Assembly: GCA_027593235.1 (NCBI GenBank)
Contig: JAQCIU010000037.1
Location: 1-30,342, forward strand
Direction: 5' to 3'
Origin: Chloroflexota bacterium
GTDB lineage: Bacteria; Chloroflexota; Dehalococcoidia; UBA2979
Length of the DNA: 30,342 nucleotides
The position numbers and the translations under genes were made by a program. Below the pieces are notes generated by a model. It was not told the DNA's origin and made no database searches. It saw nothing but the letters and a program-made list of their open reading frames with translations. Shown here one piece after another: positions 1,698 through 26,173 of this stretch. How positions within the stretch are numbered: the stretch's first letter is position 1; each line of letters starts with the position of its first letter.

Positions 1698-1743
1698 TCA
1701 GTCCTGAGATCGCCCGCGGATCACCGAAAAGCCCAGCTATTCA

Positions 1744-1772
1744 TTGCTGGGACGCTTCTGTATCCCTATACT
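1744..1772 (+). promoter_or_regulatory. Putative sigma70-type promoter of dnaN
   Basis: TTGCTG (1744-1749), 17-bp spacer, TATACT (1767-1772), in an AT-rich intergenic region. Confidence 0.6.
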
Positions 1773-1842
1773 AATGATGTAAATGAGAATCTGAGTAAGC
1801 ATTTTTTTCGATCTATTGATCGACCAAACCTAGACGACGCCC

Positions 1843-2973
1843 ATGCGCCTTTCTTGCCAGCAAGAAGACCTTCACCGCGGTCTCTCCGCCGTTGCTCGGG
1901 CGATCCCCGCGCGAACGACCTTGCCGATCACCCAGCACGTCCTGTTCGAGGCGCTGGAAGACTCGATCGTGCTGTCCGCGACGGATGCCGAAACAATCGC
2001 CATCACCTACCGGATCGCCGCCGATGTCGACGAGCCCGGCTCGATCACGATGCCGTCCCGCTTGCTCTCGGACTTCGTCGCGACCCTGCCGCACGAGCAG
2101 ATCAAGCTCACGCTGGCCGAGCGCTCGCGCCAGGTCAGCCTGACCTGCGCTCGCAACACCGCCTCAATTGGTGGGCTCGACCCCGACGATTTCCCGCCGA
2201 TCCCGCCGGTCGATGACGCCGGTCGCGTCGAGGTAGACGCCGGTCGCCTCCGCAAGGCGATCAGCCAGACCGTCTTCTCCGCCGCCACCGATGACTCGCG
2301 CCCGGTACTCACCGGCGTGCACTTCCACATGGAAGACCGCGAAGTGCGACTCGCCGCCGCCGATGGCTTCCGCCTCTCGGTACACACCATGGCGCTCGAT
2401 CACGAGGTCGACGAACGTGCCGTGATCGTTCCGGCGCGCGCCCTCGGCGAACTCGGACGGCTGCTCTCCGACGTCAGCGGTCCCGCGACGATGACCTTCA
2501 ACTCCGCGGGCACCCAGGTGCAGTTCGACCTCGGTCACGCCAAGCTCGTCGCCCAGCTCATCCAGGGAACTTTCCCGAACTACGAGCAGCTCATCCCGCG
2601 CGAGACCACCACCCGCACCGAGGTCTCCGTGAGCGAGCTGATCCGCGAGACCCGCATCGCCTCGATCTTCGCGCGCGACGGGTCGGGCATCGTCCGCCTC
2701 ATCGGCACGCCCGGCGATGGCGGACCCGGTCGTCTCCAGATCAACGCCCGCGCCGAGGAAGTCGGCGACAACGAAGGCGAAATCGACGCCATCGTCGACG
2801 GCGAAGAAGCAAAGATCGCCTTCAACGGTCGCTACCTCATGGACGTGCTCCAGATCATCGACTCCGATCGCGCGATGATCGAAACGTCATCGCCCTCGAG
2901 CCCTGGGGTGATCCGTCCCGTCGGCGACGACGCCTTCGTGCACGTGGTCATGCCGATGTTCGTTCAATGGTGA
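1843..2973 (+). CDS. dnaN: DNA polymerase III beta sliding clamp
   Basis: 376 aa; LSATD, SRPVLTGV, AADGFRLS, GTFPNYEQLIP, IAFNGRYLMD and C-terminal VVMPM motifs. Confidence 0.97.
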   Translation: MRLSCQQEDLHRGLSAVARAIPARTTLPITQHVLFEALEDSIVLSATDAETIAITYRIAADVDEPGSITMPSRLLSDFVATLPHEQIKLTLAERSRQVSLTCARNTASIGGLDPDDFPPIPPVDDAGRVEVDAGRLRKAISQTVFSAATDDSRPVLTGVHFHMEDREVRLAAADGFRLSVHTMALDHEVDERAVIVPARALGELGRLLSDVSGPATMTFNSAGTQVQFDLGHAKLVAQLIQGTFPNYEQLIPRETTTRTEVSVSELIRETRIASIFARDGSGIVRLIGTPGDGGPGRLQINARAEEVGDNEGEIDAIVDGEEAKIAFNGRYLMDVLQIIDSDRAMIETSSPSSPGVIRPVGDDAFVHVVMPMFVQW

Positions 2974-2978
2974 TAAAC

Positions 2979-2992
2979 AGCACGTTTGTTCT
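2979..2992. promoter_or_regulatory. Candidate LexA (SOS) box
   Basis: AGCACGTTTGTTCT (minus strand AGAACAAACGTGCT) is one mismatch from AGAAC-N4-GTTCT, the Gram-positive/Chloroflexi type. Confidence 0.45.
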
Positions 2993-3056
2993 ATCTACCC
3001 CTTCGCGGTAACCTTCTCGCTGTAGCGGCCCTTCTTCCCGGACAGGAGCTTCCGCA

Positions 3057-3770
3057 GTGACCCGTGGCGGGGACCGGCATCCCTTCGTTCCTGGCGACGA
3101 ACTCGTCCACGCCCAGGCCATCGTCCAGGCGATGCTCCACGATGGATCGACGGGCGGTCTCCTATTCCGTGCTGGGCTCAGCGGCGTGCAGGCCAAGCAC
3201 GACCAGACGCTCGAGCAGCTCAGGGCAGCGCCAGACTTTCACTTTGAGATCCGCGCGCCTCTCCTTCTCCACTCGTGGCTTCGTCAACAGCGTGTTCTAG
3301 GGGAGATAGGTGAGCCGTCGGCGGCAGGCGTGGTGTCCGACGCGTGCGCGTTCGCGGACCGTTGGGGGCTCGCGGCCTGGTGGGGTCCCGTTTCTGTACT
3401 CCAGCTGCTCCTCTTCGGCCTCGCGTCACCCGAGCGCGTTCTGGACCCCTCGGCGTTTCGCGGGGACTGGATCCCGCTAGAGGCTGTCCGAGCGACAATG
3501 CCCGGGGGACGCTCGATGGTGCTCGAGCTTGAGCCGAACGCCACTGCAGCCGCGGTCACGGATCTCATCGCTGAGCAATCGGCAACGGCCGGCTATCCCC
3601 TAAGCTATCGGGCGAAACGTCGCATCAGCGCGAGCGTCGCACCGCACGTGCTTAAAGCTCGCACGAAGGCGGAGTCAGCCGGTTGGGAGCACGAGCCGAC
3701 CGGGAACCTTGAAGCCGATGCGGCTTGGTGCGCGCGACTCCTCCTCGATGAGAAGGCGACCCCGTCGTAG
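3057..3770 (+). CDS. Hypothetical protein, probably a C-terminally truncated remnant of an integrated element
   Basis: 237-aa ORF with more A/T-ending codons than its neighbours (CTA, ATA, CTT AAA); overlaps the convergent ORF by 166 bp; no recognisable motif. Confidence 0.5.
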   Translation: MTRGGDRHPFVPGDELVHAQAIVQAMLHDGSTGGLLFRAGLSGVQAKHDQTLEQLRAAPDFHFEIRAPLLLHSWLRQQRVLGEIGEPSAAGVVSDACAFADRWGLAAWWGPVSVLQLLLFGLASPERVLDPSAFRGDWIPLEAVRATMPGGRSMVLELEPNATAAAVTDLIAEQSATAGYPLSYRAKRRISASVAPHVLKARTKAESAGWEHEPTGNLEADAAWCARLLLDEKATPS

Positions 3771-4207
3771 TCGACGAGGAACACCGCCCGCGGTAGCTCG
3801 CCTGCGGGGAGGGCCGGCGCGAAACCGACCACGGCGGCGATCGCCTCGAGGCTGTAGGGGCTGCCGAGGTTTTCGAGCGGTGGCGGAGCCGGGAAAGCGG
3901 TCGGCGTGACGTCCGGCGGCGGCGTCGGGAGGACCTCGATGCGCTCGCCTTGGACGAGGCCGAAGAACTCGCCGATCGCGGTGCGGGCGGGTGGGACGGC
4001 GATCGTCGCCGCGAGCATCACCAGCGCGACGACCGTTGCGGCCGCGAGGCGAGGCGCGCGCCCGATCGCGAAGCGAGGGGCGCGGCGCTCGATGCGGGCG
4101 GCGGCAACCACGCGGCTGGCGAGGTCGGGCGTCGTTGGGTACGCGGCGGCCGCGGCCTCGGTGTCGAGCCACTGCGCCCAGCGGTCGTCGCGCCGTTCGT
4201 TGGTCAT
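3605..4207 (-). pseudogene. Putative anti-sigma factor, extracytoplasmic part apparently truncated near 3755
   Basis: ATGA overlap with the ECF sigma stop; short cytoplasmic N-terminus, one TM helix (LAAATVVALVMLAATIAV), Pro-rich linker. After ...FLVDYDGVAF the sequence looks like antisense read-through. Confidence 0.55.
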
Positions 4208-4806
4208 TGGTCGCCACCCGATTCGAGGTCGGTCGGGGCCAACGACGGGAAGTCTTGCTCGATGACGGCGCGGAGCCGCGTGCGTGCTCGGCTCAGCCGC
4301 GATTTCACGGTGCCGGGTTGCTGGTCGATGGTGGTCGCGATCTCTGACTCCGGGAGATCGAGGAAGTGCCGCAGGTACAGCACCACCTGGTCGTCATGGC
4401 GGAGGCGAGCGATCGCGGTCAGGAGCGTGCGCTGGCGTTCGCTTTGCTCGAAGGCGCGGGCGGGGCCGGGGATCGACGGCTCCTCGATCGGTCGCAGGCG
4501 GCCGAGGAGGCCGCGTCGCCGTCCGCGCGCGCGGACCTCGTTGAGCGCGAGGTTGGTGACGATCCGCAGTAGCCACGGCCGAAACGGCTGGCCGAGCTGG
4601 AAACGTGAGAGCTGGCGGTAGGCGCGGATGAAGCCGTCCTGGGTGACGTCCTCGGCGGTCGCTGCGTCGCGCACGACGAGGTAGGCGGTGCGGAATGCCA
4701 CGGGTTGATAGCGCTCGACAAGAGCGGCGTACGCCTCCGCGTCGCCGTTCCGTACCGCCTGGATGACGGCACCATCTGGATCCATCAGTCCTGCGCGTCC
4801 ACGCAC
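4204..4806 (-). CDS. ECF-type RNA polymerase sigma-70 factor
   Basis: AEDVTQDGFIRAY, FRPWLLRIVTN (region 2) and SEIATTIDQQPGTVKSRLSRAR (region 4). Start is GTG 4806 or ATG 4785. Confidence 0.93.
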   Translation of the reverse strand: MRGRAGLMDPDGAVIQAVRNGDAEAYAALVERYQPVAFRTAYLVVRDAATAEDVTQDGFIRAYRQLSRFQLGQPFRPWLLRIVTNLALNEVRARGRRRGLLGRLRPIEEPSIPGPARAFEQSERQRTLLTAIARLRHDDQVVLYLRHFLDLPESEIATTIDQQPGTVKSRLSRARTRLRAVIEQDFPSLAPTDLESGGDQ

Positions 4807-4893
4807 CTGTCATACACCGCGGGCGAGCGATCGGTTCCCGCTGGTGGTTCGAGCGTCAGCGCTGGTTCCCGGCAGATCGAGGGGGCCGGCTGG

Positions 4894-5478
4894 TTAGGCC
4901 GGAGCGGTGACGCGGATACCGTCGATCAATTGCGGGATGAGGCTGCGCGCGACGCGGTCGGCGTCGAGCTTGCCCGAGGTGGTGACGTGCATCATCCCGA
5001 CGAAGTGCAGCGCGCCCATCAGCGCGGTGGCGGTCAGATCGACGTCGTCGACCTTGAGTTCGCCGGTGGCGCGGCCCTCGATCAGGAGTTCGCGGAGCGG
5101 CGTCATCATCACGCGGTCGGCGTTCGCCATGACCTCGCTCATGTTGCCGGCGCGCTTCACCGCGAGGGGGAGCTCCGTGCAAAGCGGCGGGTGTTGCTCA
5201 ATGCTCTGGAGGATCGCGGTCATCGCGCGCGTCAGACGCTCGCTGACTGTTCCGCTGGAAGCGGCGGCCGAGGCGATCGCCTCGCGGACCAACGAGAACT
5301 TCTCATTGAGGAAGAAGGCGATCAGGTCGTCTTTACCTGAGAAGTAGTAGTAGAGCGTCGCTCGCGGCACGTCGGCGAGTTTGGCGACCTCGTCGATTGT
5401 CACGTCGAACTCAGTGCCCGTGAGTTGGTCAGACACCTTGATCAGCCGTGCGGTCAGCTCCGCCGGTGGCGTTTTCAT
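4894..5478 (-). CDS. TetR/AcrR-family transcriptional regulator
   Basis: TIDEVAKLADVPRATLYYYFSGKDDL HTH; likely start ATG 5478 (MKTPPAE). Confidence 0.92.
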   Translation of the reverse strand: MKTPPAELTARLIKVSDQLTGTEFDVTIDEVAKLADVPRATLYYYFSGKDDLIAFFLNEKFSLVREAIASAAASSGTVSERLTRAMTAILQSIEQHPPLCTELPLAVKRAGNMSEVMANADRVMMTPLRELLIEGRATGELKVDDVDLTATALMGALHFVGMMHVTTSGKLDADRVARSLIPQLIDGIRVTAPA

Positions 5479-5577
5479 ATGTCTACATCCTACTGCGAAC
5501 TCCTCTTGACAGAGTTTAGACGTGTGTCTGGTCGGTCGTGCATTCCGACTGCCGAGGCTGGTTCCCGGGCGAGCGCG

Positions 5578-5603
5578 GAGGGCGGGCCAATCGGCCCGCC
5601 CTC
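5578..5603. repeat. Perfect 11-bp GC-rich inverted repeat (hairpin) between tetR and nirA
   Basis: GAGGGCGGGCC-AATC-GGCCCGCCCTC; no U-tract, function unclear. Confidence 0.75.
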
Positions 5604-5683
5604 GTCGCGTCTGGCACCTCGCGTGTCTGGCACTCCGCTGCAATCGGTCCGAGAGATCGCCGCAACCGAGCAGAGACCCACTG

Positions 5684-5721
5684 TTCATCCACCGTTCACC
5701 TGCACGCAGCGCCTCCGAAAC
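5684..5721 (+). promoter_or_regulatory. GlnR/OmpR-like phased binding array upstream of nirA
   Basis: TTCAT-n6-TTCAC-n6-GCAGC-n6-GAAAC, with 11-bp periodicity as in the actinobacterial GlnR box (gTnAc-n6-GaAAc). Confidence 0.5.
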
Positions 5722-5759
5722 CGTCGCCCGCGACCCTGTTGGTGCGGAGGAGTGCGCGC

Positions 5760-7382
5760 GTGGCAGTCAACAAGATCGAGGCGATCAAGACCGAGAAGGA
5801 CGGGCTGGCGGTGTTGGCCGACCTGTTCCGCTACGCCCGTGACGGGGTGGACACGATCCCCGACGACGACCTTGAACGACTCAAGTGGTACGGGCTGTTT
5901 CACCGCAAGGCGACTCCCGGATTCTTCATGCTGCGAATCCGGATGCCCAACGGGGTGCTCAGCTCCGAACAGCTCGAAGCGATCGGCGAGATCTCCAACC
6001 GCTGCGGGCGCGGGGCCGCCGACATCACGACCCGACAGGCGATCCAGCTTCGCTGGATCACGATCGAGGACGCGCCGTGGGTGCTGCAACGGCTGGCGGC
6101 GGCGGGACTGACCTCGCAACAGAGCGGCATGGATAACGTCCGCAACGTGACCGGATGCCCGCTCGCGGGCCTGGACGCCGACGAGCTGTACGACGCGGGC
6201 CAGCTCGCGATGCGGTTGCAGCAGGCGATCATCGGGCACGATCGGTTCAGCAACCTGCCACGCAAATTCAGCATCGCGATCTCCGGCTGCCGCGAGGACT
6301 GCATCCACGCGCAGACCAACGACCTGTCGTTCGTGCCGGCGACCCGACCGTCCGAGGACGGCCCACCGCGTGTCGGGTTCAACGTCCTCGTTGGTGGCGC
6401 GCTCGGTGGAGCGGAGCCGGAGCTGGCGCAGCCGCTGGACGCGTTCGTCGAGCCGGCCGAGGTGGTCCCGCTCGCCGACGCGATCCTCGCAACGTTCCGC
6501 GATCACGGGTCGCGCGAATCGCGCAAGACGGCGCGGCTCAAGTTCCTACTGCGCGAGCGAGGCATCGAGGGCTTTCGGGCAATCGTCGCGGATGCGTATT
6601 GCGCGCCGATCGAGCGGGCGGGTGAGCCGGCGACCAACCGACACGGCGGCGATCACATCGGCCTCACCACGCAGCGCCAGGCCGGTCGTTCGGTCGTGGG
6701 TTGTCTCGTCCCGGTTGGCCGTGCCAGCGGCGACGCGCTGATCGAGTTCGGACGGCTCGCCTCTGTCTACGGCACCGGGGAGGTGCGGCTCACGGTTCAG
6801 CAGAACGTGCTGATCCCCGGCGTTGCGGACGCCGTCCTGGGGGAGTTGCTGGCGGAGCCGCTGCTCGACACGTACAGCCCAAGCCCGTCGAACTGGATCA
6901 GGTCGCTCGTCACTTGCACCGGCAACGACTTCTGCCATTTTGCGCAGACCGATACGAAGGGCGACGGCATTCGCCTGGCGGAGGCGCTGGACGCTCGCTA
7001 CGAGATCGACACGCCCGTGCGCATCCAGGTTTCCGGATGCCCGCACGCCTGCGGGCAGCACCGCGCCGGGGAGATCGGACTGCTCGGCGGGGGTGTGCGC
7101 GTGGACGGCGTCGTTGAGAGTGCGGCCGCTGTATTCGTTGGTGGCCGCCTGGGTGAGGACGCGCGACTCGCGGAGCAGGTGGCCAGCGGCGTGCTGCAGG
7201 CTGACCTGCCGGAGGTGGTCGCGGACCAGGTGCGCGCCCTCCGCGGGGCCGCTGCGGTGCGACCGCACCCGCCCGGACCGCATCACACCGCGGCGGGGGC
7301 GGCGGCTGCATCGCCGTCCTCGCCGTTGGTTGTCGCTGACGTCGCGGTTCCGATATCGGCCGTCCCGGCCGATGGGCGCTAG
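5760..7382 (+). CDS. nirA: Ferredoxin--nitrite reductase (siroheme/4Fe-4S)
   Basis: GTG 5760 after GGAGG; NKIEAIKTEKDGL, RLKWYGLF, ITTRQAIQ, SGMDNVRN, NLPRKF, and CTGNDFC / SGCPHACGQ cluster ligands; adjacent to a nitrate reductase and transporter. Confidence 0.9.
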   Translation: MAVNKIEAIKTEKDGLAVLADLFRYARDGVDTIPDDDLERLKWYGLFHRKATPGFFMLRIRMPNGVLSSEQLEAIGEISNRCGRGAADITTRQAIQLRWITIEDAPWVLQRLAAAGLTSQQSGMDNVRNVTGCPLAGLDADELYDAGQLAMRLQQAIIGHDRFSNLPRKFSIAISGCREDCIHAQTNDLSFVPATRPSEDGPPRVGFNVLVGGALGGAEPELAQPLDAFVEPAEVVPLADAILATFRDHGSRESRKTARLKFLLRERGIEGFRAIVADAYCAPIERAGEPATNRHGGDHIGLTTQRQAGRSVVGCLVPVGRASGDALIEFGRLASVYGTGEVRLTVQQNVLIPGVADAVLGELLAEPLLDTYSPSPSNWIRSLVTCTGNDFCHFAQTDTKGDGIRLAEALDARYEIDTPVRIQVSGCPHACGQHRAGEIGLLGGGVRVDGVVESAAAVFVGGRLGEDARLAEQVASGVLQADLPEVVADQVRALRGAAAVRPHPPGPHHTAAGAAAASPSSPLVVADVAVPISAVPADGR

Positions 7383-7390
7383 CGCCGCCG

Positions 7391-9526
7391 GTGGCGCGGC
7401 TCTCGTTCCGCGGCACTGACGACTGGCAACGCTCCGTTTGCTGCTACTGCGGGACGGGCTGCGGCATCCTCGCCCGCGCTCGCGATGGCCGCGTCACGGA
7501 GGTCCGAGGTGATCCCGACCACCCGGTGAACGCAGGCAAGCTCTGCTCCAAGGGCGCCCTGCTGCCCGGCATCTTCGAGGCCGACGGTCGCCTGCTCCAG
7601 CCGCTCGTGCGCGACGGCAAGGGCTCGCACACGCGCGTCACCAACTGGGATGAGGCGATTGGGCGCGTCTCCGAGGCGATCCGCCGCAACGTCGCCGAGC
7701 ACGGTCCCGATTCGATCATGCTCTACGGCTCGGGCCAGCTGATGACCGAGGACTACTACCTCTTCGGCAAGCTCGCGAAGGGCTTTATCGGCACCAACAA
7801 CCAGGACACCAACTCGCGGCTCTGCATGGCGGCGGCCGTCACCGGCTACACGCTCGCGCTCGGCAAGGACTCACCGCCGGCGTCGTACGAGGACTTCGAC
7901 CACGCGAAGACGTTCCTGATCCTGGGCGCCAATGTCGAGGCGTGTCACCCGATCCTCTACGACCGGATCAAGGCGCGGAAGCGTGCCGATCGCGACGTGA
8001 AGGTGATCGTCGTCGATCCGCGCGCGACGCGGACGACCGAGATCGCCGACCTGCATCTGCCGGTGCGCCCCGGCACCGACGTCGCCCTACTGCAGTCGCT
8101 GCTCTATGAGGTGCGACTGGCGGGCGGCCTCGATGAGCGGTTCATCGCGGAGCGCACCTCCGGCTGGGCCGAGGTCGATGTAGCCCTCGAGGGCTGGTCG
8201 GCGGAGCGTGCCTCGGTGATCACGGGCATCGATGGCGCGGCGATCATCGAGGCGGCCCGCATCATCGCCGGCAACGGGCCGATGGTTAGCCTGTGGACGA
8301 TGGGTGCGAACCAGAGCACCTCGGGTGTCGATAAGAACCTCGGGTTGCTCAACCTGTCGCTGGCGACGGGCAACATCGGCAAGCCGGGCGCCGGGCCGTT
8401 CTCGCTGACCGGTCAGCCGAACGCGATGGGCGGACGCGAGGCGGGCGGCCTCGCGACGACGTTGCCCGGCCACCGGATGGTGGCGAACGCCGCAGACCGC
8501 GAGGCAATGGAGTGCGCCTGGGGGCGTCCGCCGGGCTCGATCTCGGACCGCCCCGGCCTGACCGCGATCGAGATGATCGAGGCCCTCGAGCGCGACGAGA
8601 TCAAGGTCGTCTGGATCGCGGCGACGAACCCGGTCGCTTCGTTCCCGAACTCCGAGCGTGTCGAGGCGGCGCTGCGACGCGCCGAGCTGGTGGTGGTGCA
8701 GGACCCCTATCACCCGACCGAGACGAGCCGTGTCGCCGACGTGATCCTGCCCGCCGCCCAGTGGAGCGAGCGCGGCGGGACGATGACGAACAGCGAGCGA
8801 CGGATCTGCCTGCTCGAACAGATCGGCGACGCGCCGGGCGAGGCGCTGCCGGACTGGCAGATCATCTGCCGCATCGCCTCGGAGTTGGGGTACGGCGACG
8901 CCTTCGACTACGCCGACACCGAGGAGATCTACGACGAGTACCGTGCGCTCACTCGCGGCCGTGACCTCGACATCACCGGGCTGAGCTACGAGGTCCTGCG
9001 CGAGACGCCGGGCGGCCTGCAGTGGCCCTATCCCGAGGGCGCAAGCGCGGGCCGCACCCGGCTCTTCGAGGATGGCGATCGTTTTCCGAACTCGGACGGC
9101 CGCGCGCACTTCCACGTCCCGGCGCTCGAAGCACCCTCGGACGTGGTGTCGCCCGAGTACCCGCTCGTGCTGCTGACGGGGCGGGTGAAGGACCAGTGGC
9201 ACACGATGACCCGCACCGGCGGCGTGCCGAAGCTCAATCGCAGCGAGTCGGAGTCCTTCCTCGAGATACACAGCGCCGACGCCTCGATGCTCGGCGTCGA
9301 GGACGGCGCGCGTGTCGCCGTCTCTTCGCGGCGCGGGCGGTTCGAGGTGAAGGCGCGGGTGACGGACTCGATTCGCGAGGGCGCGGTCTTCGCGCCGTTC
9401 CACTGGGGCGCGGAGTGGGGCCGCCGAGGCGTCGCCAACGCGGTCACCAGCGAGGCGATCGACCCTCGGTCGAAGCAACCGGAGCTGAAGTACGCAGCCG
9501 TCCGGGTGGAGCGGATCGACGACTGA
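7391..9526 (+). CDS. narB: Assimilatory nitrate reductase catalytic subunit (Mo-bisPGD, NarB/NasA type)
   Basis: CCYCGTGCG...GKLCSKG 4Fe-4S motif, SGQLMTEDYY, DTNSRLCM, SLTGQPNAMGGRE, GTMTNSERR, DQWHTMTRT, DPRSKQPELK. At 711 aa it lacks the C-terminal BFD-like domain. Confidence 0.9.
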   Translation: MARLSFRGTDDWQRSVCCYCGTGCGILARARDGRVTEVRGDPDHPVNAGKLCSKGALLPGIFEADGRLLQPLVRDGKGSHTRVTNWDEAIGRVSEAIRRNVAEHGPDSIMLYGSGQLMTEDYYLFGKLAKGFIGTNNQDTNSRLCMAAAVTGYTLALGKDSPPASYEDFDHAKTFLILGANVEACHPILYDRIKARKRADRDVKVIVVDPRATRTTEIADLHLPVRPGTDVALLQSLLYEVRLAGGLDERFIAERTSGWAEVDVALEGWSAERASVITGIDGAAIIEAARIIAGNGPMVSLWTMGANQSTSGVDKNLGLLNLSLATGNIGKPGAGPFSLTGQPNAMGGREAGGLATTLPGHRMVANAADREAMECAWGRPPGSISDRPGLTAIEMIEALERDEIKVVWIAATNPVASFPNSERVEAALRRAELVVVQDPYHPTETSRVADVILPAAQWSERGGTMTNSERRICLLEQIGDAPGEALPDWQIICRIASELGYGDAFDYADTEEIYDEYRALTRGRDLDITGLSYEVLRETPGGLQWPYPEGASAGRTRLFEDGDRFPNSDGRAHFHVPALEAPSDVVSPEYPLVLLTGRVKDQWHTMTRTGGVPKLNRSESESFLEIHSADASMLGVEDGARVAVSSRRGRFEVKARVTDSIREGAVFAPFHWGAEWGRRGVANAVTSEAIDPRSKQPELKYAAVRVERIDD

Positions 9527-9535
9527 GACCGGATC

Positions 9536-9606
9536 GAGATTCCGTTGAAACATTGCGGAGAGCGTTTCGTAGCGCCGAGTTCACGCGCACGGCATCGGGC
9601 GGCAAT
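9536..9606 (+). promoter_or_regulatory. Second GlnR-like phased array upstream of the nitrate transporter
   Basis: Pentamers at exact 11-bp steps: GAGAT 9536, GAAAC 9547, GAGAG 9558, GTAGC 9569, TTCAC 9580, GGCAT 9591, GCAAT 9602. Confidence 0.4.
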
Positions 9607-9657
9607 CACCTCCTTCTAGGTTGATCTGGACAGATCAGCGGGCGGAGGAGGACCACC

Positions 9658-11034
9658 CTGGACACCGGACAGATTCAGCATCGCGCGACGAAGATCGACC
9701 TGTTCAGCTTCAAGAGCGTGCAGATGCGCACGTTCCACATCACCTGGTTTGCGTTCTTCCTGGCGTTCTTCGGTTGGTTCGGGATCGCGCCGTTGATGGC
9801 GGTGGTGCGTGAGGACCTGGAGCTGACGAAGACCCAGGTCGGCAACACGGTGATCGCGTCGGTCGCCGTGACGGTTATCGCGCGGTTGTTCATCGGCTGG
9901 CTCAGCGATCGAATTGGCCCGCGTCGCGCCTACACCTGGCTGCTGATCCTGGGCGCATTCCCGGTGATGGGGATCGGGCTCGCGCAGAACTACGAGACCT
10001 TCGTGCTGTTCCGGCTGGCGATCGGGGTGATCGGCGCCTCGTTCGTGATCACGCAGTACCACACGTCCGTGATGTTCGCGCCGAACGTCGTCGGCACCGC
10101 GAACGCGACCACCGCCGGTTGGGGCAACCTCGGTGGTGGCGTGACGCAGATGGTGATGCCGTTCGTACTCAGCCTGCTGGTGCTGTTCGGTCTCAACGAG
10201 GCGGTCGGCTGGCGCTTTGCGATGGTCGTGCCCGGCATCGCGCTCTTCGCGATGGGCATCGTCTACTACAAGTACACGCAGGACACGCCGGACGGCGATT
10301 TCAAGGACCTGCGCGCGCGCGGGTTGCTGCCGCCGGCCTCCGCGACGAAGGGCTCGTTCTGGGCCGCGGCGCGCGACTACCGGGTGTGGGCGCTGTTCGT
10401 CATCTACGGCGCGTGCTTCGGCATCGAGCTGACGATCAACAACGTCGCCGCGCTCTACTACCACGACCGCTTCGAGCTGAGCGTCGGCGTTGCCGGGCTG
10501 ATCGCCGGTCTGTTCGGCCTGATGAACCTCTTCGCCCGGTCGCTCGGCGGCATCTTCGGCGACCGCGCCGGGGCGCGGTTCGGGCTCCGCGGGCGGGTGA
10601 TCTTCCTCGGCGTGGTGCTGGCCCTCGAGGGTGTCGCGCTGCTGGTGTTCTCGCAGATGGCCGCGCTGGCGCTGGCGATTCCGGCGATGATCGTCTTCAG
10701 CATCTTCGTGCAGATGTCGGAGGGCGCGACCTTCTCGGTGGTGCCGTTCGTCAACCCGAAGGCACTTGGCTCGGTGGCCGGCATCGTCGGCGCCGGCGGT
10801 AACGCCGGAGCGGTTGGGGCCGGCTTTCTGTTCCGGATGGAGAGTCTCGCGACGGAGGATGCCTTCGCCATTCTCGGTGTGCTCGTGCTCGCCTCGTCGG
10901 TGCTGGTGGCGCTGGTGCGGTTCGCGCCGCAGGCCGAGGCCGAAGCGGCGGCGGCACATCGCGAGGCCGCTCCTCGCGCGGTGCCCGCGCTCGCCGCCCA
11001 GGCGCAAAGCGTGACGGTTCGCGCGGACGGCTAG
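9658..11034 (+). CDS. NarK/NRT2-family MFS nitrate/nitrite transporter
   Basis: QMRTFHITWFAFFLAFFGWFGIAPL and nitrate signature GTANATTAGWGNLGGG, GLMNLFARSLGG, GIVGAGGNAG. In-frame CTG at 9658 follows GGAGGAGG; first conventional start is GTG 9718. Confidence 0.92.
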   Translation: MDTGQIQHRATKIDLFSFKSVQMRTFHITWFAFFLAFFGWFGIAPLMAVVREDLELTKTQVGNTVIASVAVTVIARLFIGWLSDRIGPRRAYTWLLILGAFPVMGIGLAQNYETFVLFRLAIGVIGASFVITQYHTSVMFAPNVVGTANATTAGWGNLGGGVTQMVMPFVLSLLVLFGLNEAVGWRFAMVVPGIALFAMGIVYYKYTQDTPDGDFKDLRARGLLPPASATKGSFWAAARDYRVWALFVIYGACFGIELTINNVAALYYHDRFELSVGVAGLIAGLFGLMNLFARSLGGIFGDRAGARFGLRGRVIFLGVVLALEGVALLVFSQMAALALAIPAMIVFSIFVQMSEGATFSVVPFVNPKALGSVAGIVGAGGNAGAVGAGFLFRMESLATEDAFAILGVLVLASSVLVALVRFAPQAEAEAAAAHREAAPRAVPALAAQAQSVTVRADG

Positions 11035-11065: not shown

Positions 11066-11094
11066 GGGGCGGACAGCGATGTCCGCCTCTCTTC
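11066..11094 (+). terminator. Probable intrinsic terminator of the nitrate operon
   Basis: GGGGCGGACA-GCGA-TGTCCGCCTC followed by TCTTC; GNRA tetraloop. Confidence 0.6.
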
Positions 11095-11207
11095 GATCTG
11101 TCTCTCCACCCCCATTCGTCGCTCCGAGCGTGATCTCCGTTCGCAACTGCGGGATTCCCCCATGTCCGGCCGCACCAGCCTGGAGGACGCTGGGCGCGGA
11201 GAAAGGC

Positions 11208-14200
11208 GTGCGTGTGCGTCCAGGGATCATCGTGCTGGTCGGGCTGGGCCTGTTGCTGGCCGCCTGCTCGGGGAAAGGCGATGCGGCGACGCCCTCACCC
11301 GGCGCGACGACGCCGGCTTCCGACCCGGATGGGACCGCACTGGTGTCCTTCGTCCAGGGCCTCAGCCCGGCTGACTACTACCAGGCGAGCTGCGCCGCGT
11401 GTCACGGCGTGGACAAGGAGGGGGCGGTTGGCCCCCCGCTCGTCGTGGAGCGACTGACCGAGCCTGCCGAGGTCTACTTCGATGCGATCAAGAACGGGCG
11501 TCCCGGCACTGCGATGCCCGCATGGGGCGCCGTCGGACTGAGCGATGCCGAGGTCCGCACACTCGTGGCCTATCTCCAGGGCCGCGACCTTGTCGGGGGT
11601 TCCGGCTCTGGGATCGGTAGCCAGCCCTCGGTGCTCGGGATCGAGGCGAAGTACCAGATAGAACTCCCGCCGATCGCCCGTACCGCTTCGCGTCCGCTCG
11701 AGTGGACGGTCACCAATAGCTCAGACGCGGCGGTGGAGTTGATCCAGTTCGACAGCTCGACGCTGTCAGTCTTCCTGCTCGATCCGCTGCCGATTCGACT
11801 GGCCCCGGGTCAGTCTCGCGATCTGCGGTTGGTCTTCGTACCGAACCCGCGCGGTTCCGAGGGCGATCCCGCTACCGGGACGGCATCGGTGCTGGTCCGC
11901 GGTTCCGATGCGGTCACGGAGCGCGTGCAGCTGGCGATCCGCTCCGCGATCGGCGCGGCCGCTACTCCGTTGCGGCTCTCCAGCATGGGACTGCCCGACT
12001 ACCCGAGTCGTGTGGCGACGTGGCAGGACTACGTCTATGTCGGCTACCTCGGCGGGCTGATCGAGGTCTATCAGTGGACCGGGAACGGGGGGCTCGAGCT
12101 TGTCGAGTCCGTATCGACAATTGCCGAGACGCCGAACCACGGCCCGCATGGCCGCCCGAACCCGGACGCCGCCGGTCGCCTGATCGGCGGTTTCGCGCTG
12201 GATGCCGACGGCACGCTCTACGTCACGCACAGCGACCCGCGCCTCAACGAGGGCGAGTTCCTGAAGACCGGGCACCTCGCCGATCTCAACTCGGGGGCGG
12301 TGACTGCCCTCGATGGTCCGCCCGGCCAATACGGTGCGGCCGGGCACCGGCGTGACCTCGTAGCCGGGCTCCCGCGCAACGTCACCAATCACATGCCGCT
12401 GGGCCTGGCGCTCCAGGGCGAGTGGCTCTACGTGGGCGTTGGCGCGATGACCGATTCCGGGCAGACCGACGAATCGAAGCCGCAGCCGGATACCGACATC
12501 AGCGGTGCGGTGCTGCGGATCAACGTGGCGGACCCCAGCCGCTTCCCGCTCGTCCTCGCCGAACCGGGTGGCCCGTTCGCCAGCGCCGCCGTGCTCGAGC
12601 CCGGGCTGCTCGAGGTGTTCGCCACCGGTATGCGGAATGCGTTCGGACTCGCCTTCGGACCGGACGGCCAGCTCTACCTCTCGGATCAGTCCTCGGACGG
12701 TGGTGCGACGCCGCAGCCGGCGGGGGACGACGGCCCGCCCGGGCTGATACAGAACCTGGGGCCGGACCACCTTCATCTGGTGCGGCGGGGCGACTTCCTC
12801 GGGCAGCCGAACCTGGCGCGCGGTGAGTCGATCCTCAACGACGGGTCGGAGTACATCACCCCGATCCCCAACCCGGACTACGCCGCGCCGATCCACGTCT
12901 TTGGGACGCACAACTCCGCGACTGGGATCGCCTGGTACGAGGGCGCCGCCTTCCCGGACCTGCGCGGCAAGCTCCTCGTCAGCAAGTTCAGCGGAGCCAC
13001 GGGGCTGCAGGCGCTGACCGTCGAGGACGGTCGCGTCGTCGCGGTGCAGGTGCTGGCGACGAAGCCGCTGCTCAGCAACGTCACCGACGTCGCGGTGGGA
13101 CCGAACGGCGAACTGGTGATTGCGGAGTTCTGGGAGAAGCGACTGCGGATCGCACGTGGCTACGCCCCGCCGTCGCCGGCGGTCTCCTCCGACCACTTCT
13201 ATTTCGGCATCAACCTCGATCCGGAGGACGACTCCGCCGACGGCTACGCGTTGCGGACCGGCGTCGAGCCGGAGGTGCTGGTCGACTTCTTCCGATTCCC
13301 GCTGGACGGGGAGGGCCGGTCGCGGCTCGTCGACTTCCTCGAGACGACGCGTAGCCGTCAGTCGATCGCGCTGGTCACGCTGGAGCCGTTCGACGGCCTC
13401 GGAGCGGTGACGCCTACCGCGGTGGACGAGCTCGCGGCGATCGTCGCGGCGTCGCCGGGCGGTGGCGCCACGGTGATGATCCGCTTCGCGCATGAGATGA
13501 ACGGCTCGTGGTACCCGTGGAGCCAGCAGCCGGAGGCGTACATCGCGGCGTTCCGGCTGGTGGCGGAGACGGTCTATGACGAGGCGCCGGGGACGACCAT
13601 GTTGTGGGCGCCCAACTACGGTGGGGGCTATCCCTTCCGCGGCGGCGCCTTCGAGGCGACGGTCCGGCAGCCCGGTTTCGCGCTCCTCGATAGCAACGGC
13701 GACGGGCAGCTCGACACGACGGACGATCCGTATGCGCCGTACTACCCCGGCGACGACGTCGTCGACTGGGTCGGCATGTCGCTCTACCACTGGGGCAGTG
13801 CCTACCCATGGCGCGAGAACGAGGTTCCCGAGGCCGGCAAGTTCATCGCGGAGCTCCGAGGCGAGTACAGCGGTGCGAACGGCGACGACTCGGCCATTCC
13901 CGACTTCTACGGCGAGTACGCGGAGCGCCGAGGCAAGCCGCTCGCGATCCCGGAGACGGCCGCGCTGTACAACACCACGCTTCCGGGAGACGAAGCCGCG
14001 ATCAAGTCGGATTGGTGGTCTCAGGTCTTCTCACAGGAGACCCGGGAACAGCTCCCCGCGCTCCGGATGGTGAACTGGTTCGAACACCTGAAGCCTGAAG
14101 CCGAGGTGGGCGGCAACATCATCGACTGGCGAGCGACCGGCGATCCGTCGCTTGCCGAGGCGTTCGTCGCCCACCTCCGGGCGTGGCTCGCGTCGCGCCT

Positions 14201-14210
14201 GAGCGAGTAG
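11208..14210 (+). CDS. Multidomain lipoprotein: cytochrome c + Ig-like + glucose/sorbosone-dehydrogenase-like beta-propeller + GH26 glycoside hydrolase
   Basis: Lipobox LLLAAC; CAACH with distal AMPAWG; GLPRNVTNH and GMRNAFGLAF propeller motifs; RFAHEMNGSWYPW, YYPGDDVVDWVG and PLAIPET GH26 motifs. ATG 11079 lies inside the terminator, so GTG 11208/11214 after GAGAAAGG is preferred. Confidence 0.82.
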   Translation: MRVRPGIIVLVGLGLLLAACSGKGDAATPSPGATTPASDPDGTALVSFVQGLSPADYYQASCAACHGVDKEGAVGPPLVVERLTEPAEVYFDAIKNGRPGTAMPAWGAVGLSDAEVRTLVAYLQGRDLVGGSGSGIGSQPSVLGIEAKYQIELPPIARTASRPLEWTVTNSSDAAVELIQFDSSTLSVFLLDPLPIRLAPGQSRDLRLVFVPNPRGSEGDPATGTASVLVRGSDAVTERVQLAIRSAIGAAATPLRLSSMGLPDYPSRVATWQDYVYVGYLGGLIEVYQWTGNGGLELVESVSTIAETPNHGPHGRPNPDAAGRLIGGFALDADGTLYVTHSDPRLNEGEFLKTGHLADLNSGAVTALDGPPGQYGAAGHRRDLVAGLPRNVTNHMPLGLALQGEWLYVGVGAMTDSGQTDESKPQPDTDISGAVLRINVADPSRFPLVLAEPGGPFASAAVLEPGLLEVFATGMRNAFGLAFGPDGQLYLSDQSSDGGATPQPAGDDGPPGLIQNLGPDHLHLVRRGDFLGQPNLARGESILNDGSEYITPIPNPDYAAPIHVFGTHNSATGIAWYEGAAFPDLRGKLLVSKFSGATGLQALTVEDGRVVAVQVLATKPLLSNVTDVAVGPNGELVIAEFWEKRLRIARGYAPPSPAVSSDHFYFGINLDPEDDSADGYALRTGVEPEVLVDFFRFPLDGEGRSRLVDFLETTRSRQSIALVTLEPFDGLGAVTPTAVDELAAIVAASPGGGATVMIRFAHEMNGSWYPWSQQPEAYIAAFRLVAETVYDEAPGTTMLWAPNYGGGYPFRGGAFEATVRQPGFALLDSNGDGQLDTTDDPYAPYYPGDDVVDWVGMSLYHWGSAYPWRENEVPEAGKFIAELRGEYSGANGDDSAIPDFYGEYAERRGKPLAIPETAALYNTTLPGDEAAIKSDWWSQVFSQETREQLPALRMVNWFEHLKPEAEVGGNIIDWRATGDPSLAEAFVAHLRAWLASRLSE

Positions 14211-14213
14211 GCG

Positions 14214-15224
14214 CTAGAGGAACTTCGGCAGCACCTTCTCGGTGAACAACTCGAACGAGGAGTGCGACAGCGGGGTGCAGATCAGGTACTCGAGCGGGAG
14301 CTCTTCCTGGAGCCGTTGCAGGTCGTCGATCACCTTGTCCGGTGTCCCGCAGATGACCACGTCGTTCACGTAACGCTCGACGGGATCCTCGTCCTCCGGG
14401 ACGTCAGCGAGGACGCTTGTGTCCTGCGTCTTCTCCGCGGGTTTCGTGCCGCGACGCAGGTACGAACCGAACATGAACTGCGCGCCGTTACGCGCGATCG
14501 CCTCCGCCTCCTCCTGGGTGTCGGCCAGTGCGATGTTGCGCGTCATCGGGATTACACGGCCCTCCATCGAGTAGCCGGCGCCCTCCAACTCGCGCTGGTA
14601 CAGCGCGCGCTTTGAGGCGATGTCCTCGTGCGAGGAGTGCGGATCCATCATTATCGTGTAGCCGTTCTGACCGCACCATTCCACGGCGCCGGCCGAACTG
14701 GCGGCCATCCAGACCGGAGGGCGTGGTTGCTGCAGCGGCTTCGGGAGGACCTCGACGTCTTCGAAGTCGTAGAACTCACCGTGGTAGGTGAACGGCCCGT
14801 CCTCCCACGCCTTCAGCACGATGTCGACGGTCTCCCGGAATCTCGGGTAGCTCTCCTCCATCGGCACCCCGAAGTTCTGGTACTCCTTCTGGTCGAACCC
14901 GCGCCCGGCGCCCCAGTTCACCCGGCCGCCCGAGAGCACGTCGAGGAGCGCGACCTCCTCGGCCAGACGCAGCGGGTGGTAGAACGGCGCCAGCGAGATA
15001 CCGGTGCCGATGCGCAGCCGCTTGGTCCGCGCCGCGATGTGGGTGCCCATCATGTGGATCGAGGGGCACACGCTGTACGTGCTGAAGTGGTGCTCCGCGA
15101 GCCAGACGGCGTCGTAGCCGGTCTCGTCCATGATTTCGGCGCGCTGGAACGCGCGCTCGTAGACCGTCGGGAGCGGCACGCGTCGTCCCGGCCAGCTGAA
15201 GAACTGTAGGACACCGAATTTCAT
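14214..15224 (-). CDS. LLM-class flavin-dependent oxidoreductase (luciferase-like)
   Basis: GYDAVWLAEHHF, HPLRLAEEVALLDVLSGGRVNWGAGRG, PKPLQQPRPPVW; GGAGG before ATG 15224. Confidence 0.93.
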   Translation of the reverse strand: MKFGVLQFFSWPGRRVPLPTVYERAFQRAEIMDETGYDAVWLAEHHFSTYSVCPSIHMMGTHIAARTKRLRIGTGISLAPFYHPLRLAEEVALLDVLSGGRVNWGAGRGFDQKEYQNFGVPMEESYPRFRETVDIVLKAWEDGPFTYHGEFYDFEDVEVLPKPLQQPRPPVWMAASSAGAVEWCGQNGYTIMMDPHSSHEDIASKRALYQRELEGAGYSMEGRVIPMTRNIALADTQEEAEAIARNGAQFMFGSYLRRGTKPAEKTQDTSVLADVPEDEDPVERYVNDVVICGTPDKVIDDLQRLQEELPLEYLICTPLSHSSFELFTEKVLPKFL

Positions 15225-15439
15225 AGCGACCTCCATCGCGGACCTGGCGCAGTCTCGCAGAACTGCTGCATCGCGTCGCACTGATCCGTGCGCACTCGCA
15301 CACGATTCCGAGGTGGCCCGCACGGCGCTCACCGGCTACGGCGCAGCCCTCGGTCACGCGATGCGCGGACGTTCGCCCCTGTCGTCGGGGCGGCGACCGG
15401 GCATCATCGAGGTACGACAGCACCGAGGGGGTATGAGCG

Positions 15440-15983: not shown

Positions 15984-16805
15984 ATGGCGAACGAACGAGT
16001 ACGAGCACACCTGATCGCGGGTGGATTCCCGGCCGGGCAGACCGCCGGTCACGATCACGACTACGCGCGGCTGCAGATCCTGGGGAAGCTCCAGGACCGC
16101 GAGCACGTCCACACCACCGTCACCAATGACTACGACGACATCGAGAAATGGCTGCCGGACTGCAAGCTGCTGGTCACCTACGTGGCCGGACCGGTCGCGC
16201 AGGCCGAGCAGCATGAGGTCTTGCGCCAGTGGGTCGAGGCCGGCGGTCGCTGGCTGGCATTGCACGGCAGCAGCGGCGGCAAGGCCGCGCGGATGCCCGA
16301 CAGCACCCAGCGCCAGATGGTGCAGATGGACTATCACGACACGCTGGGTGGCTTCTTCATCCACCACCCGCCGATCCGCAAGTTCCAGGTCGAACTGGTC
16401 GACCGCCAGCACCCGCTGACGCAGGGACTCCCGGACGTCTTCGAAACAATCGATGAGCCCTACATGGTGAAGATGCTGGCGCCGGAGAGCACCGAGGTGC
16501 TGCTCACGGCCGACTGGGGCATCGTCCCGCCATCGCCGACGGGCTTCTACTACACGGAGGATGACGCCGTACTGCCGGGAACCTCGAAGCGTGCGATCGC
16601 CTTCGAGCGCACCTTGAGCCAGGGCGCGGTCGCGTACACGACGCTCGGTCACTGCCACACGCCGCTGACGAACAGCCAGCGCTCGGTGCACGAGAGCGTC
16701 GCCGAGGATCACGTGGTGCCGCTGCACCTGCGCGGTTCATGGGAGACGGCGGGGTTCCGGACGCTGCTCGCGAACGGCGTCTCGTGGGGCCTCGGGGAGA
16801 TTTAG
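15984..16805 (+). CDS. ThuA-like domain protein (class I glutamine amidotransferase-like fold)
   Basis: WVEAGGRWLALHG, LGGFFIHHPP, HPLTQGLP.FETIDEPY, YTTLGH. Confidence 0.8.
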   Translation: MANERVRAHLIAGGFPAGQTAGHDHDYARLQILGKLQDREHVHTTVTNDYDDIEKWLPDCKLLVTYVAGPVAQAEQHEVLRQWVEAGGRWLALHGSSGGKAARMPDSTQRQMVQMDYHDTLGGFFIHHPPIRKFQVELVDRQHPLTQGLPDVFETIDEPYMVKMLAPESTEVLLTADWGIVPPSPTGFYYTEDDAVLPGTSKRAIAFERTLSQGAVAYTTLGHCHTPLTNSQRSVHESVAEDHVVPLHLRGSWETAGFRTLLANGVSWGLGEI

Positions 16806-24932: not shown

Positions 24933-25050
24933 TCGTCGGTCACTACGCGGTGACCGGGGAAGTCGGTGTGAATCCGACGCTGTCCCGCAACTGTAACTCG
25001 CCCACCAGGTCGCACCTGATGAGCGGGGAGTCAGAACACCGGCCCGCGTG
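24933..25050 (+). ncRNA. Cobalamin riboswitch
   Basis: GGGGAAGTCGGTGTGAATCCGACGCTGTCCCGCAACTGTAA core and GAGTCAGAACACC B12-box, upstream of a btuFCD-like ABC transporter; extended -10 TGCTATCCT just upstream. Confidence 0.93.
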
Positions 25051-25119
25051 AATGTCGAACCTGCGAGGACAGGCGACGGTTATGCGGGCTTCCGCGGAGC
25101 CTGCGGCGCCTCACCCCTG

Positions 25120-25144
25120 CCCCCTCGCCCAGGAGGGGGTTTTT
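25120..25144 (+). terminator. Intrinsic terminator in the riboswitch expression platform
   Basis: CCCCCTC-GCCCAG-GAGGGGG-TTTTT. Confidence 0.75.
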
Positions 25145-25173
25145 GTGCCCCCTCCACGCGGAGGGCTACGGAC

Positions 25174-26160: not shown

Positions 26161-26173
26161 TGGCTCGCTCGCG

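Follow-up and report, generated by a model that had tools for sequence, protein, structure and literature searches.

Can a single bacterial polypeptide cut a glycan, oxidise the sugar ends that are set free and pass the electrons on to a heme of its own? This question is raised by a gene at positions 11208..14210 (plus strand) of a contig from a Chloroflexota bacterium (Dehalococcoidia, UBA2979; assembly GCA_027593235.1, contig JAQCIU010000037.1), the 30,342 nucleotides of which are hereafter called the window. Polysaccharide breakdown normally relies on hydrolases and sugar oxidoreductases that are distinct proteins, and the known cytochrome-linked sugar dehydrogenases, cellobiose dehydrogenase (CDH) and the pyranose dehydrogenase CcPDH, are fungal and are equipped with a binding module, not with a hydrolase. 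A sequence-only reading of the window described the gene product as a lipoprotein in which a cytochrome c, an immunoglobulin (Ig)-like stretch, a propeller of the glucose/sorbosone dehydrogenase (GSDH) family and a GH26 glycosidase are fused in one chain, and this description was followed up here by domain, structure and family searches.

The reading that we put forward, tentatively and at slightly less than an even chance, is that the protein is a lipid-anchored beta-glucanase, sugar dehydrogenase and cytochrome c feeding the membrane respiratory chain. It builds on the domain identities and folds, the glycanase catalytic residues, the His and the Arg-Asn of the propeller, the heme-binding motif and the recurring association of the cytochrome-Ig-propeller core with beta-glucanases, all of which are established below; what we infer from these is which substrate and cofactor are used, in which direction the electrons flow and where they finally go. 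In the proposed mechanism the GH26 barrel would act as a retaining endo-beta-glycanase, its likeliest substrate being beta-1,3-1,4- or beta-1,3-glucan, and each cut would create a new reducing end. The propeller would oxidise the anomeric carbon of the freed sugars or oligosaccharides to give the lactone, in a site of the soluble glucose dehydrogenase (sGDH) type with His395 as the base, Arg476 and Asn477 polarising a quinone cofactor, most likely pyrroloquinoline quinone (PQQ), and a metal in an acidic loop. The two electrons would then move to the N-terminal heme c domain, swinging on a flexible linker, and from heme c to an acceptor in the membrane, for instance a terminal oxidase; in this way respiration would be fed with electrons from glycan fragments that are still outside the cell.

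Reading frame and domain architecture

The gene, its start taken at the GTG at 11208, consists of 1000 codons plus the stop, all its features lying on the plus strand. The longest open reading frame (ORF), 11079-14210, is open from an ATG at 11079 and runs without interruption through the 1000 residues that follow the GTG. The N-termini of the relatives align to the 11208 start in an alignment of 21 rows (A1), made up of 7 GH26-fused proteins and 14 proteins without a fused glycoside hydrolase (GH), and the database copy of the window protein, P0002, has 998 amino acids (aa). The G+C content rises from 0.689 over all positions of the gene to 0.865 at third codon positions, as expected for a real gene in a window of 68% G+C. 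The single uninterrupted frame that had been claimed was thus recovered, and a script found every motif named for it, those that had been given coordinates exactly in place: the LAAC lipobox (aa 17-20), CAACH (aa 62-66, 11391-11405), AMPAWG (aa 102-107), GLPRNVTNH (aa 387-395), GMRNAFG (aa 474-480), SNVTD (aa 623-627, 13074-13088), HEMNG (aa 762-766, 13491-13505) and IPET (aa 914-917, 13947-13958).

Using a Pfam scan with curated cut-offs and AlphaFold2 (AF2) models of residues 40-662 and 655-1000, built from alignments of relatives, we obtained the domain order lipoprotein signal peptide, class I cytochrome c, Ig-like sandwich, six-bladed propeller and (beta/alpha)8 barrel of GH26 type. All five modules of the sequence-only reading were therefore found again, namely the lipobox (read from the sequence), the class I cytochrome c (Pfam), the Ig-like sandwich (AF2), the GSDH-type propeller (Pfam, Foldseek) and the GH26 domain (Pfam, profile search, Foldseek). 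Pfam also scored one NHL repeat in the protein, and an NCBIfam scan gave nothing above its cut-offs.

The lipoprotein signal peptide (11208..11267), read from the sequence, shows a basic n-region, a hydrophobic core and L-A-A-C; together with the lipobox it reads VRVRPGIIVLVGLGLLLAAC, and at the position of its Cys20 (11265-11267) 18 of the 21 rows of A1 have a Cys. The protein is a predicted lipid-anchored, extracytoplasmic lipoprotein. The class I cytochrome c domain (11367..11579, aa 54-124) is helical in the AF2 model and matches Cytochrome_CBB3 (PF13442; residues 54-123, 3.4e-15, 56.6 bits against a cut-off of 27) and Cytochrom_C (PF00034; 4.2e-7, 31.6 bits against a cut-off of 21.3). Its CxxCH (C62, C65, H66) is present in 19 of the 21 rows, the remaining two being without that region, and M103 in GTAMPAW (11514-11516), the probable distal ligand, is kept in 20 of the 21. 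That this domain is a heme-binding cytochrome is, in our judgement, highly likely. Residues 1-124 resemble an entire small cytochrome c551 (NCBIfam NF045774, 1.6e-8, below the cut-off), and cytochromes c551 of this type are lipid-anchored. Chloroflexota are generally single-membraned; if this holds here, the lipid anchor would fix the protein to the cell membrane on its outer side.

Behind the cytochrome lies a flexible linker (11580-11639, aa 125-144), in which the pLDDT score (predicted local distance difference test) falls below 50 at model residues 93-99, corresponding to protein residues 132-138. It is followed by the Ig-like beta-sandwich, a spacer (11640..11957, aa 145-250) to which AF2 gives strands from residue 106 to 210 of the model (145-249 of the protein), and over which the relative P0010 scores DUF1573/ASH. 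When the cytochrome domain and the propeller were modelled as a complex together with heme, the scores were 0.00 and 0.01 (mark 0.32), which informs neither way. Among the natural relatives, P0021 (575 aa, encoded on a contig of 1.77 Mb) carries the signal peptide and lipobox directly before the Ig domain and is without the cytochrome c domain.

The C-terminal module (13200..14207, aa 665-1000) is a (beta/alpha)8 glycoside hydrolase of GH26 type. Pfam Glyco_hydro_26 (PF02156) covers only residues 753-800 of it (1.1e-4; 22.2 bits, the cut-off being 20.2), a marginal score over 48 residues that is backed by both the profile match and the fold match to CtLic26A, the lichenase of C. thermocellum. 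A profile of 53 rows of the domain (A3) matches CtLic26A at 2.7e-16 over nearly the entire barrel with both Glu motifs aligned, and 42 of its 45 listed PDB matches are GH26. In this profile search HEMNGSWYPW of the window protein is paired with HEANGDWYPW of CtLic26A, and the nucleophile Glu is aligned as well; the Glu pair of CtLic26A we take to be catalytic. The AF2 model of residues 655-1000 (pLDDT 95.5) likewise has CtLic26A as its best Foldseek match (3.7e-15, template modelling (TM) score 0.74-0.79 on target), and the first 31 ranks shown are all GH26 entries or constructs built on them. The two catalytic Glu residues proposed earlier are both present, the acid/base Glu763 (13494-13496) in HEMNG and the nucleophile Glu916 (13953-13955) in IPET on strand 7, and across the 53 rows of the family alignment the conservation of each is 90% or more. 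An active retaining glycanase is very likely.

As substrates for assay the sequence-only reading had listed mannan, lichenan and beta-1,3-xylan. Of these the beta-glucan side is favoured by the likeness to CtLic26A, and mannan and beta-1,3-xylan appear less likely: CtLic26A aligns over the whole barrel, mannanases only over about 35-70 residues around the acid/base motif, and the sister fusions described below carry glucanases of the beta-1,3 and mixed-linkage types. On these comparisons beta-glucan is more likely the substrate than mannan or beta-1,3-xylan. An EF-hand-like loop, DSNGDGQLDTTD (13689-13724, aa 828-839), lies within an insertion absent from CtLic26A, and 90% or more of the 53 aligned rows agree at each of the loop's Asp, Thr and Gly positions, which suggests a calcium site marking this GH26 subfamily.

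Distribution of the fusion and coupling of the core to other glucanases

A word-indexed search, in which 42 proteins matched at E <=1e-3 among 8000 candidates scored, returned the window protein, 6 full-length clusters, 14 core-only clusters, 17 GH26-like-only clusters and 4 others. The full-length ones (P0003-P0008, each a 90%-identity cluster) share 69-72% identity with the window protein over 95-99% coverage, come from three different sources and fall together with it into one cluster at 50% identity. The core-only clusters, of 569-709 aa, hold cytochrome, Ig domain and propeller alone at 48-55% identity, and the GH26-like-only clusters match 31-33% of the query. An exhaustive search of 1.84 billion representatives gave 3204 proteins at E <=1e-3; among the 150 matches listed, the whole length is covered by P0007 only and the N-terminal two thirds by P0013, P0044 and P0045, while P0048 is a propeller fragment, P0095 a multi-cytochrome protein and the remaining 144 match by the GH26-like domain alone. 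Judged from these searches, the three-part fusion is one small clade and is rare, and the family to which the GH26-like domain belongs is large.

The combination of Cytochrome_CBB3, GSDH and GH26, each above its Pfam cut-off in the window protein, is not unique to the window, since six more clusters share its whole length. An assembly chimera was also considered and is ruled out, because these six independent clusters from other sources share the full length at 69-72% identity. The Protein Atlas of large clusters held no cluster with this architecture; its nearest cluster, cytochrome c plus GSDH of Bacteroidota (80 members, 494 aa, score 0.75), is a lead only. A search of full-text literature found no description of a fusion of cytochrome, GSDH and GH, and no paper characterising a two-domain protein of cytochrome and GSDH; GH26, cytochrome and PQQ were met together only in one general review. 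The sequence-only reading, which knew of no characterised protein with this architecture, is borne out by the rarity of the fusion in the searches and its absence from the literature found.

The core is coupled to other glucanases elsewhere. In P0044 (983 aa) and P0045 (998 aa) the cytochrome-Ig-propeller core, 41-42% identical to that of the window protein, is followed by C-termini unlike the one in the window, which hold the GH16 signature ExDxxE as EVDVME and ELDLIE. The C-terminus of P0044 matches the GH16 structure 5nbo (9.5e-6), and for that of P0045 the matches include the laminarinase ULam111 (5wut, 8.9e-14) along with many further beta-1,3-glucanases. A scan of a species-genome collection for the gene gave 2 loci only, L001 and L002, both from Chloroflexota. 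In L002, which belongs to a metagenome-assembled genome (MAG), the core gene (922-3012) has directly downstream an ORF of 259 aa (3066-3845) for a compact GH26, with a Pfam GH26 match at 1.2e-9, 22% identity to the window domain and both Glu motifs, and without the long insertion.

The join between the two ORFs in L002 is peculiar in that the frame closed by TAA at 3010-3012 goes on beyond this stop as a stretch resembling the first barrel strand, and then the frame shifts. The GH26 ORF, read in the other frame, is without a signal peptide, and the contig name gives about 0.5x coverage. By its sequence this join could be a broken fusion, the product of sequencing errors, or two genes.

In a maximum-likelihood tree of the Ig and propeller parts of the core (23 rows, the fragment P0048 left out), the seven long-GH26 fusions form one clade with support 99/98, the GH16 pair P0044 and P0045 forms a separate clade with 100/100, and the L002 protein stands deep among the unfused proteins. 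Each of three branches of the core is thus associated with a glycanase module of a different kind, one clade being fused to GH16 glucanases and another branch being followed by a different GH26, and the link to glycans drawn in the sequence-only reading has gained from it. This is the strongest argument for the core acting on glycan-derived substrates, and the same three associations favour beta-glucan over mannan. A bolder proposal would be that in a lineage of Chloroflexota the lipid-anchored core captured a beta-glucanase at least three separate times (long GH26, compact GH26 and GH16), that it makes up a self-contained extracellular respiration of polysaccharide without uptake, the polymer being cut at the cell surface and its reducing ends supplying the respiratory chain with electrons, and that its cofactor site is unlike any characterised, either holding PQQ through new residues or using another cofactor; taken as a whole, we consider this unlikely, though worth keeping in view.

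The propeller and its cofactor site

The six-bladed propeller of GSDH type (11970..13172, aa 255-655) was identified by Pfam, Foldseek and hhalign. The Pfam GSDH profile matches residues 401-639 (1e-15, 58.3 bits against a cut-off of 25), and the AF2 model of residues 40-662 (pLDDT 87.9, predicted TM score 0.91) consists of a helical cytochrome, a disordered linker, a beta-sandwich and the propeller. When this N-terminal model was compared with the PDB by Foldseek, the best match was Asd of P. aerophilum (3a9g, 2.3e-16, TM score 0.73 on target), followed by 7cgz, 7cdy, E. coli YliI (2g8s), 2ism, 3das and sGDH of A. calcoaceticus (1c9u). Except for two Lin41 filamin-NHL entries and two teneurin entries, the top ranks are PQQ sugar dehydrogenases (2.3e-16 to 9.2e-13, TM scores 0.54-0.73 on target), and the likeness to these enzymes noticed from motifs alone is therefore found also in the nearest folds. 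Lower in the list stand HHIP (7pgn, 7pgm, 3ho3) and the fungal AA12 structures 6jt5 (1.3e-11) and 6i1t (2.5e-11).

For the site itself the core family was aligned with E. coli YliI by hhalign, which gave a probability of 93% over 210 columns. G-L-P-R-N-V-T-N-H395 (His395 at 12390-12392) is paired with a YliI stretch ending in G-N-H, which we take to be the equivalent of the His144 motif of sGDH. G-M-R476-N477 (Arg476-Asn477 at 12633-12638) is paired with G-I-R-N, the acidic loop S-D-Q-S-S-D-G-G (12681-12704) with N-E-H-G-P-R-G-G, S-K593-F-S-G (Lys593 at 12984-12986) with the stretch that holds the YliI Lys, to which K593 is adjacent, and S-N624-V-T626-D (N624 at 13077-13079), which stands in the position of RxRD, with Q-R-I-R-D. 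In sGDH, as described in passages of PMC6881810, His144 is the base and Arg228 and Asn229 lie at the PQQ ketones; Lys377 and C-terminal Arg residues pair with the PQQ carboxylates, according to a section of PMC6881789. The roles given here to YliI residues rest on the motif alignment and on these two papers. For YliI itself, a shift in the spectrum of PQQ once it is bound is reported in PMC13088180.

Most of these positions are fixed within the family. No variation across the 21 rows is seen at H395, R476, N477, D493, Q494, D497, H521, H523 and H568, and K593 is shared by 20 of the rows. In the GH16-fused P0044 and P0045, too, H395, R476, N477, D493 and D497 are kept, with Asn in place of Q494. 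As judged from the alignments, the catalytic core residues of the sGDH type, His and Arg-Asn, are present in the propeller. One position before 624, Arg is found in 10 of the 14 unfused relatives, and Ser in all seven GH26 fusions. The clades also differ by a swap of charge, Lys593 with Asn624 in the window and unfused clades being replaced by Gln593 with Arg624 in P0044 and P0045, which fits both positions contacting one anionic group or ligand. A PQQ-like anionic cofactor in the propeller is, from these sequence comparisons, likely; that the cofactor is PQQ itself we leave evenly poised, and the propeller as a whole is, with moderate confidence, redox-active and sugar-oxidising.

Several observations weigh against the reading of the protein as a glucanase, sugar dehydrogenase and cytochrome in the service of respiration. 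The Pfam GSDH match spans just positions 120-322 of the 332 in the profile, and hhalign left the first two blades unaligned to YliI. N624 and T626, which occupy the Arg positions of RIRD in YliI, are invariant in 21 of 21 rows. In bacterial enzymes a C-terminal Arg pair (Arg406 and Arg408 in sGDH) binds the PQQ carboxylates, as stated in a section of PMC6881789, so that, with this pair replaced throughout the family, one defining feature of PQQ binding is missing. The comparison of the PQQ site with YliI thus came out in two parts, His and Arg-Asn being aligned and the C-terminal Arg pair missing, and the caveat of the sequence-only reading, that SNVTD stands instead of RxRD, proved right and holds for the whole family. 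With the NCBIfam model for PQQ glucose/sorbosone dehydrogenase, TIGR03606, the protein reaches 11.5 bits, where the cut-off is 434.55; a single-sequence search of the PDB with the propeller gave no dehydrogenase and only chance matches to WD40; and a family profile reaches the dehydrogenases weakly, 2g8s being matched at 1.2e-5 over about 75 residues. On the side of the setting and of the glycanase, the 30-kb window holds no genes for PQQ synthesis, cytochrome maturation or an oxidase, 14 of the 21 aligned relatives are without a fused GH, no glycanase lies beside the core gene in L001, and the fusions of the GH26-like domain to GT2, OpgC and esterase domains indicate roles in the building or trimming of polysaccharide and not in feeding alone.

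The propeller points lend themselves to another explanation, in which the propeller is no PQQ enzyme and either uses another cofactor or a metal centre made of the invariant His, Asp and Arg residues, or only binds glycan in the manner of HHIP, the cytochrome then serving another reaction. HHIP, a cofactor-free propeller that binds heparin and glycosaminoglycan mimics, is among the fold matches, and H341, D343, R345, H521, H523 and H568 are invariant specifically in this family and have no aligned counterpart in YliI; the absence of the RxR pair from 21 of 21 relatives and the TIGR03606 score far under its cut-off point the same way. Against this stand the invariance of the catalytic His and of the Arg-Asn dyad, and the covalent linkage of the cytochrome in 19 of 21 relatives, which argues for redox catalysis. 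The binding of PQQ is, moreover, plastic: the AA12 enzymes, as described in part of PMC6881789, use an N-terminal Arg and two His in place of the bacterial Lys377 and Arg408, and the core family has invariant Arg and His residues to spare in its N-terminal part. We consider a propeller of this other kind improbable, though it is the most serious of the competing explanations.

The glycanase points bear on a further explanation, that the protein trims or remodels an envelope or matrix polysaccharide of its own cell and has no role in feeding or respiration. Among 28 proteins scanned, members of the GH26-like family are standalone or fused to PKD, CE2/GDSL, SASA esterase, OpgC-type acyltransferase, GT2 or Calx-beta domains: GT2 occurs in P0038, a protein named as coming from a Mycobacteriaceae MAG, the OpgC-type acyltransferase in P0040 and P0084, and carbohydrate esterases (CE2/GDSL, SASA acetylesterase) in P0077 and P0128. 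These fusions are hints that parts of the family may act on acylated or self-made polysaccharides. Gene sets for polysaccharide synthesis often include such a hydrolase, and PslG (5bx9) is among the weaker fold matches of the barrel. No polysaccharide synthesis genes, however, flank the gene in the window, in L001 or in L002, and remodelling would leave unexplained both the dehydrogenase with its cytochrome and the exchange of GH26 for a laminarinase-type GH16 in the sister clade. A purely remodelling role is accordingly given little credence here.

Electron acceptor, genomic setting and comparison with known systems

For the electrons leaving the heme, the reading put forward above names the respiratory chain as the sink, which is plausible but, taken by itself, somewhat less than even. 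With the same chemistry, the electrons could instead go to an extracellular partner such as a lytic polysaccharide monooxygenase (LPMO), a metal oxide or a humic substance. The fungal CDH and CcPDH pass sugar-derived electrons to such extracellular partners. CcPDH, a single chain of cytochrome b, AA12 and CBM1, is able to drive the action of LPMO, as reported in part of PMC5960967, and a bacterial c-type cytochrome domain able to reduce LPMOs is described in a passage of PMC8981238. The heme domain of the window protein is moreover carried by the flexible linker with its low pLDDT at residues 132-138. The predicted lipid anchor, on the other hand, would keep the heme domain at the membrane and near the respiratory complexes, and no LPMO gene is found in the window, in L001 or in L002. 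We know of no LPMO for the glucan types that lichenase- or laminarinase-like domains cut. Delivery to an extracellular partner is on this evidence improbable, and we rank it below the non-PQQ propeller and above the remodelling enzyme.

The genes upstream raise the possibility that the protein acts on a nitrogen oxide together with its neighbours, in the manner of a cd1 nitrite reductase. A nitrate-assimilation set (5538-11034, plus strand) lies directly upstream on the same strand, 173 nucleotides from the gene, and consists of a ferredoxin-nitrite reductase-like gene (NirA-like; NF007125, 1.3e-160), a NasC/NasA-like molybdoenzyme gene and a transporter gene of the NarK type in the major facilitator superfamily (MFS; TIGR00886, 6.8e-88). 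The best PDB sequence matches of the cytochrome domain are, in addition, the c domains of cd1 nitrite reductases (6.7e-6). The propeller, however, is six-bladed and GSDH-like, with cd1 reductases reaching a TM score of only about 0.22; the upstream genes are assimilatory by family name; and the nitrate-assimilation neighbourhood is not kept beside the relatives in L001 or L002. An action on nitrogen oxides is close to refuted. A conserved pairing with an MFS gene was also tried and rejected, the upstream MFS genes of the window and of L001 being unrelated (BLASTP E 0.015) and of the NarK and lactate/oxalate-formate types, respectively.

Around the gene the promoter scan gave 0 promoter-like sites, and 2 terminator-like sites were found against 1.0 expected, neither at a gene end. 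A gene for a luciferase-like (LLM) oxidoreductase (14214-15332, minus strand) converges on the 3' end of the gene, and a ThuA-like gene of the trehalose-utilisation family (15984-16805, plus strand) lies 1.8 kb downstream. Farther upstream, dnaN (1843-2973, plus strand) encodes a protein 93% identical to metagenome proteins and 74-80% to proteins named as from Dehalococcoidia bacterium MAGs, by which the window is assigned to the Chloroflexota. The minus-strand stretch 3675-5688 includes a gene for a sigma factor of the extracytoplasmic function (ECF) type (4204-4806), with the ORF 3675-4217 downstream of it as a possible anti-sigma factor, and a TetR-family regulator gene (4894-5688). An importer of siderophore type in the ATP-binding cassette (ABC) family, with binding protein, FecCD permease and ATPase, is encoded at 25048-28083 (plus strand).

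If the reading of the protein as a glucanase, dehydrogenase and cytochrome tied to respiration is true, one bacterial chain would cut, oxidise and wire the electrons to heme, and some bacteria would draw respiratory electrons from glycans before importing them. Should the substrate be laminarin or mixed-linkage glucan, this would bear on glucan use by abundant uncultured Chloroflexota. The propeller would either broaden the known modes of holding PQQ or indicate another cofactor. Fusions of cytochromes with PQQ dehydrogenases are being engineered by biosensor groups for direct electron transfer, as described in part of PMC12011955, and the window protein would be a natural counterpart of them.

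Compared with the soluble PQQ aldose and glucose dehydrogenases (Asd 3A9G, YliI 2G8S, sGDH 1C9U), the propeller shares the six blades and, by alignment, the His motif, the Arg-Asn dyad, the acidic or carbonyl loop past the dyad and a Lys near the position of the YliI Lys. It differs from them in the low identity of 13-20%, in blades 1-2, which stay unaligned, and in the Arg pair, replaced by Asn and Thr; those enzymes are single-domain and soluble, whereas the window propeller is fused to cytochrome c, Ig domain and glycanase and is predicted to be lipid-anchored. With CtLic26A, the best profile and fold match, the barrel has in common HE(x)NG followed by W-Y-P-W and the aligned nucleophile Glu, but it is only 17-19% identical, is about 60 residues longer and has the insertion with the EF-hand-like loop.

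The fusion of cytochrome and GSDH is by itself already known in databases, in two-domain proteins annotated as 'glucose/arabinose dehydrogenase' (Cytochrom_C plus GSDH), examples being the Bacteroidota cluster and the JGI name of P0013; these have neither the Ig domain nor the glycanase. Six-bladed PQQ enzymes of bacteria whose genes have a cytochrome c4 or c551 gene as neighbour are described in part of a preprint (bioRxiv 10.64898/2026.07.10.737718), which proposes docking of the cytochrome c next to the PQQ site and transfer to a terminal oxidase and lists Chloroflexi among the phyla. In those systems, as far as the main text of the preprint goes, the cytochrome has a gene of its own, the proteins are found in soluble form in the periplasm, and the term glycoside hydrolase has 0 occurrences there. 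The proteins of the preprint were selected, by its own description, for all nine PQQ residues of CcPDH, of which the window protein probably lacks at least the last Arg.

By analogy of design, the window protein would work most like the fungal quinohemoprotein CcPDH (AA8 cytochrome b, AA12, CBM1) and CDH, which likewise combine in one chain a linker-borne cytochrome, a sugar dehydrogenase and a polysaccharide-targeting module. In AA12 enzymes of the CcPDH type, according to a section of PMC6881789, PQQ is held by a mixture of Arg and His and not by the bacterial Arg pair, which would be a further point of likeness to the window protein. Unlike these fungal enzymes, the window protein has heme c in place of heme b, is bacterial and predicted to be lipid-anchored instead of secreted, and carries as its third module a hydrolase where the fungal proteins carry a binding module.

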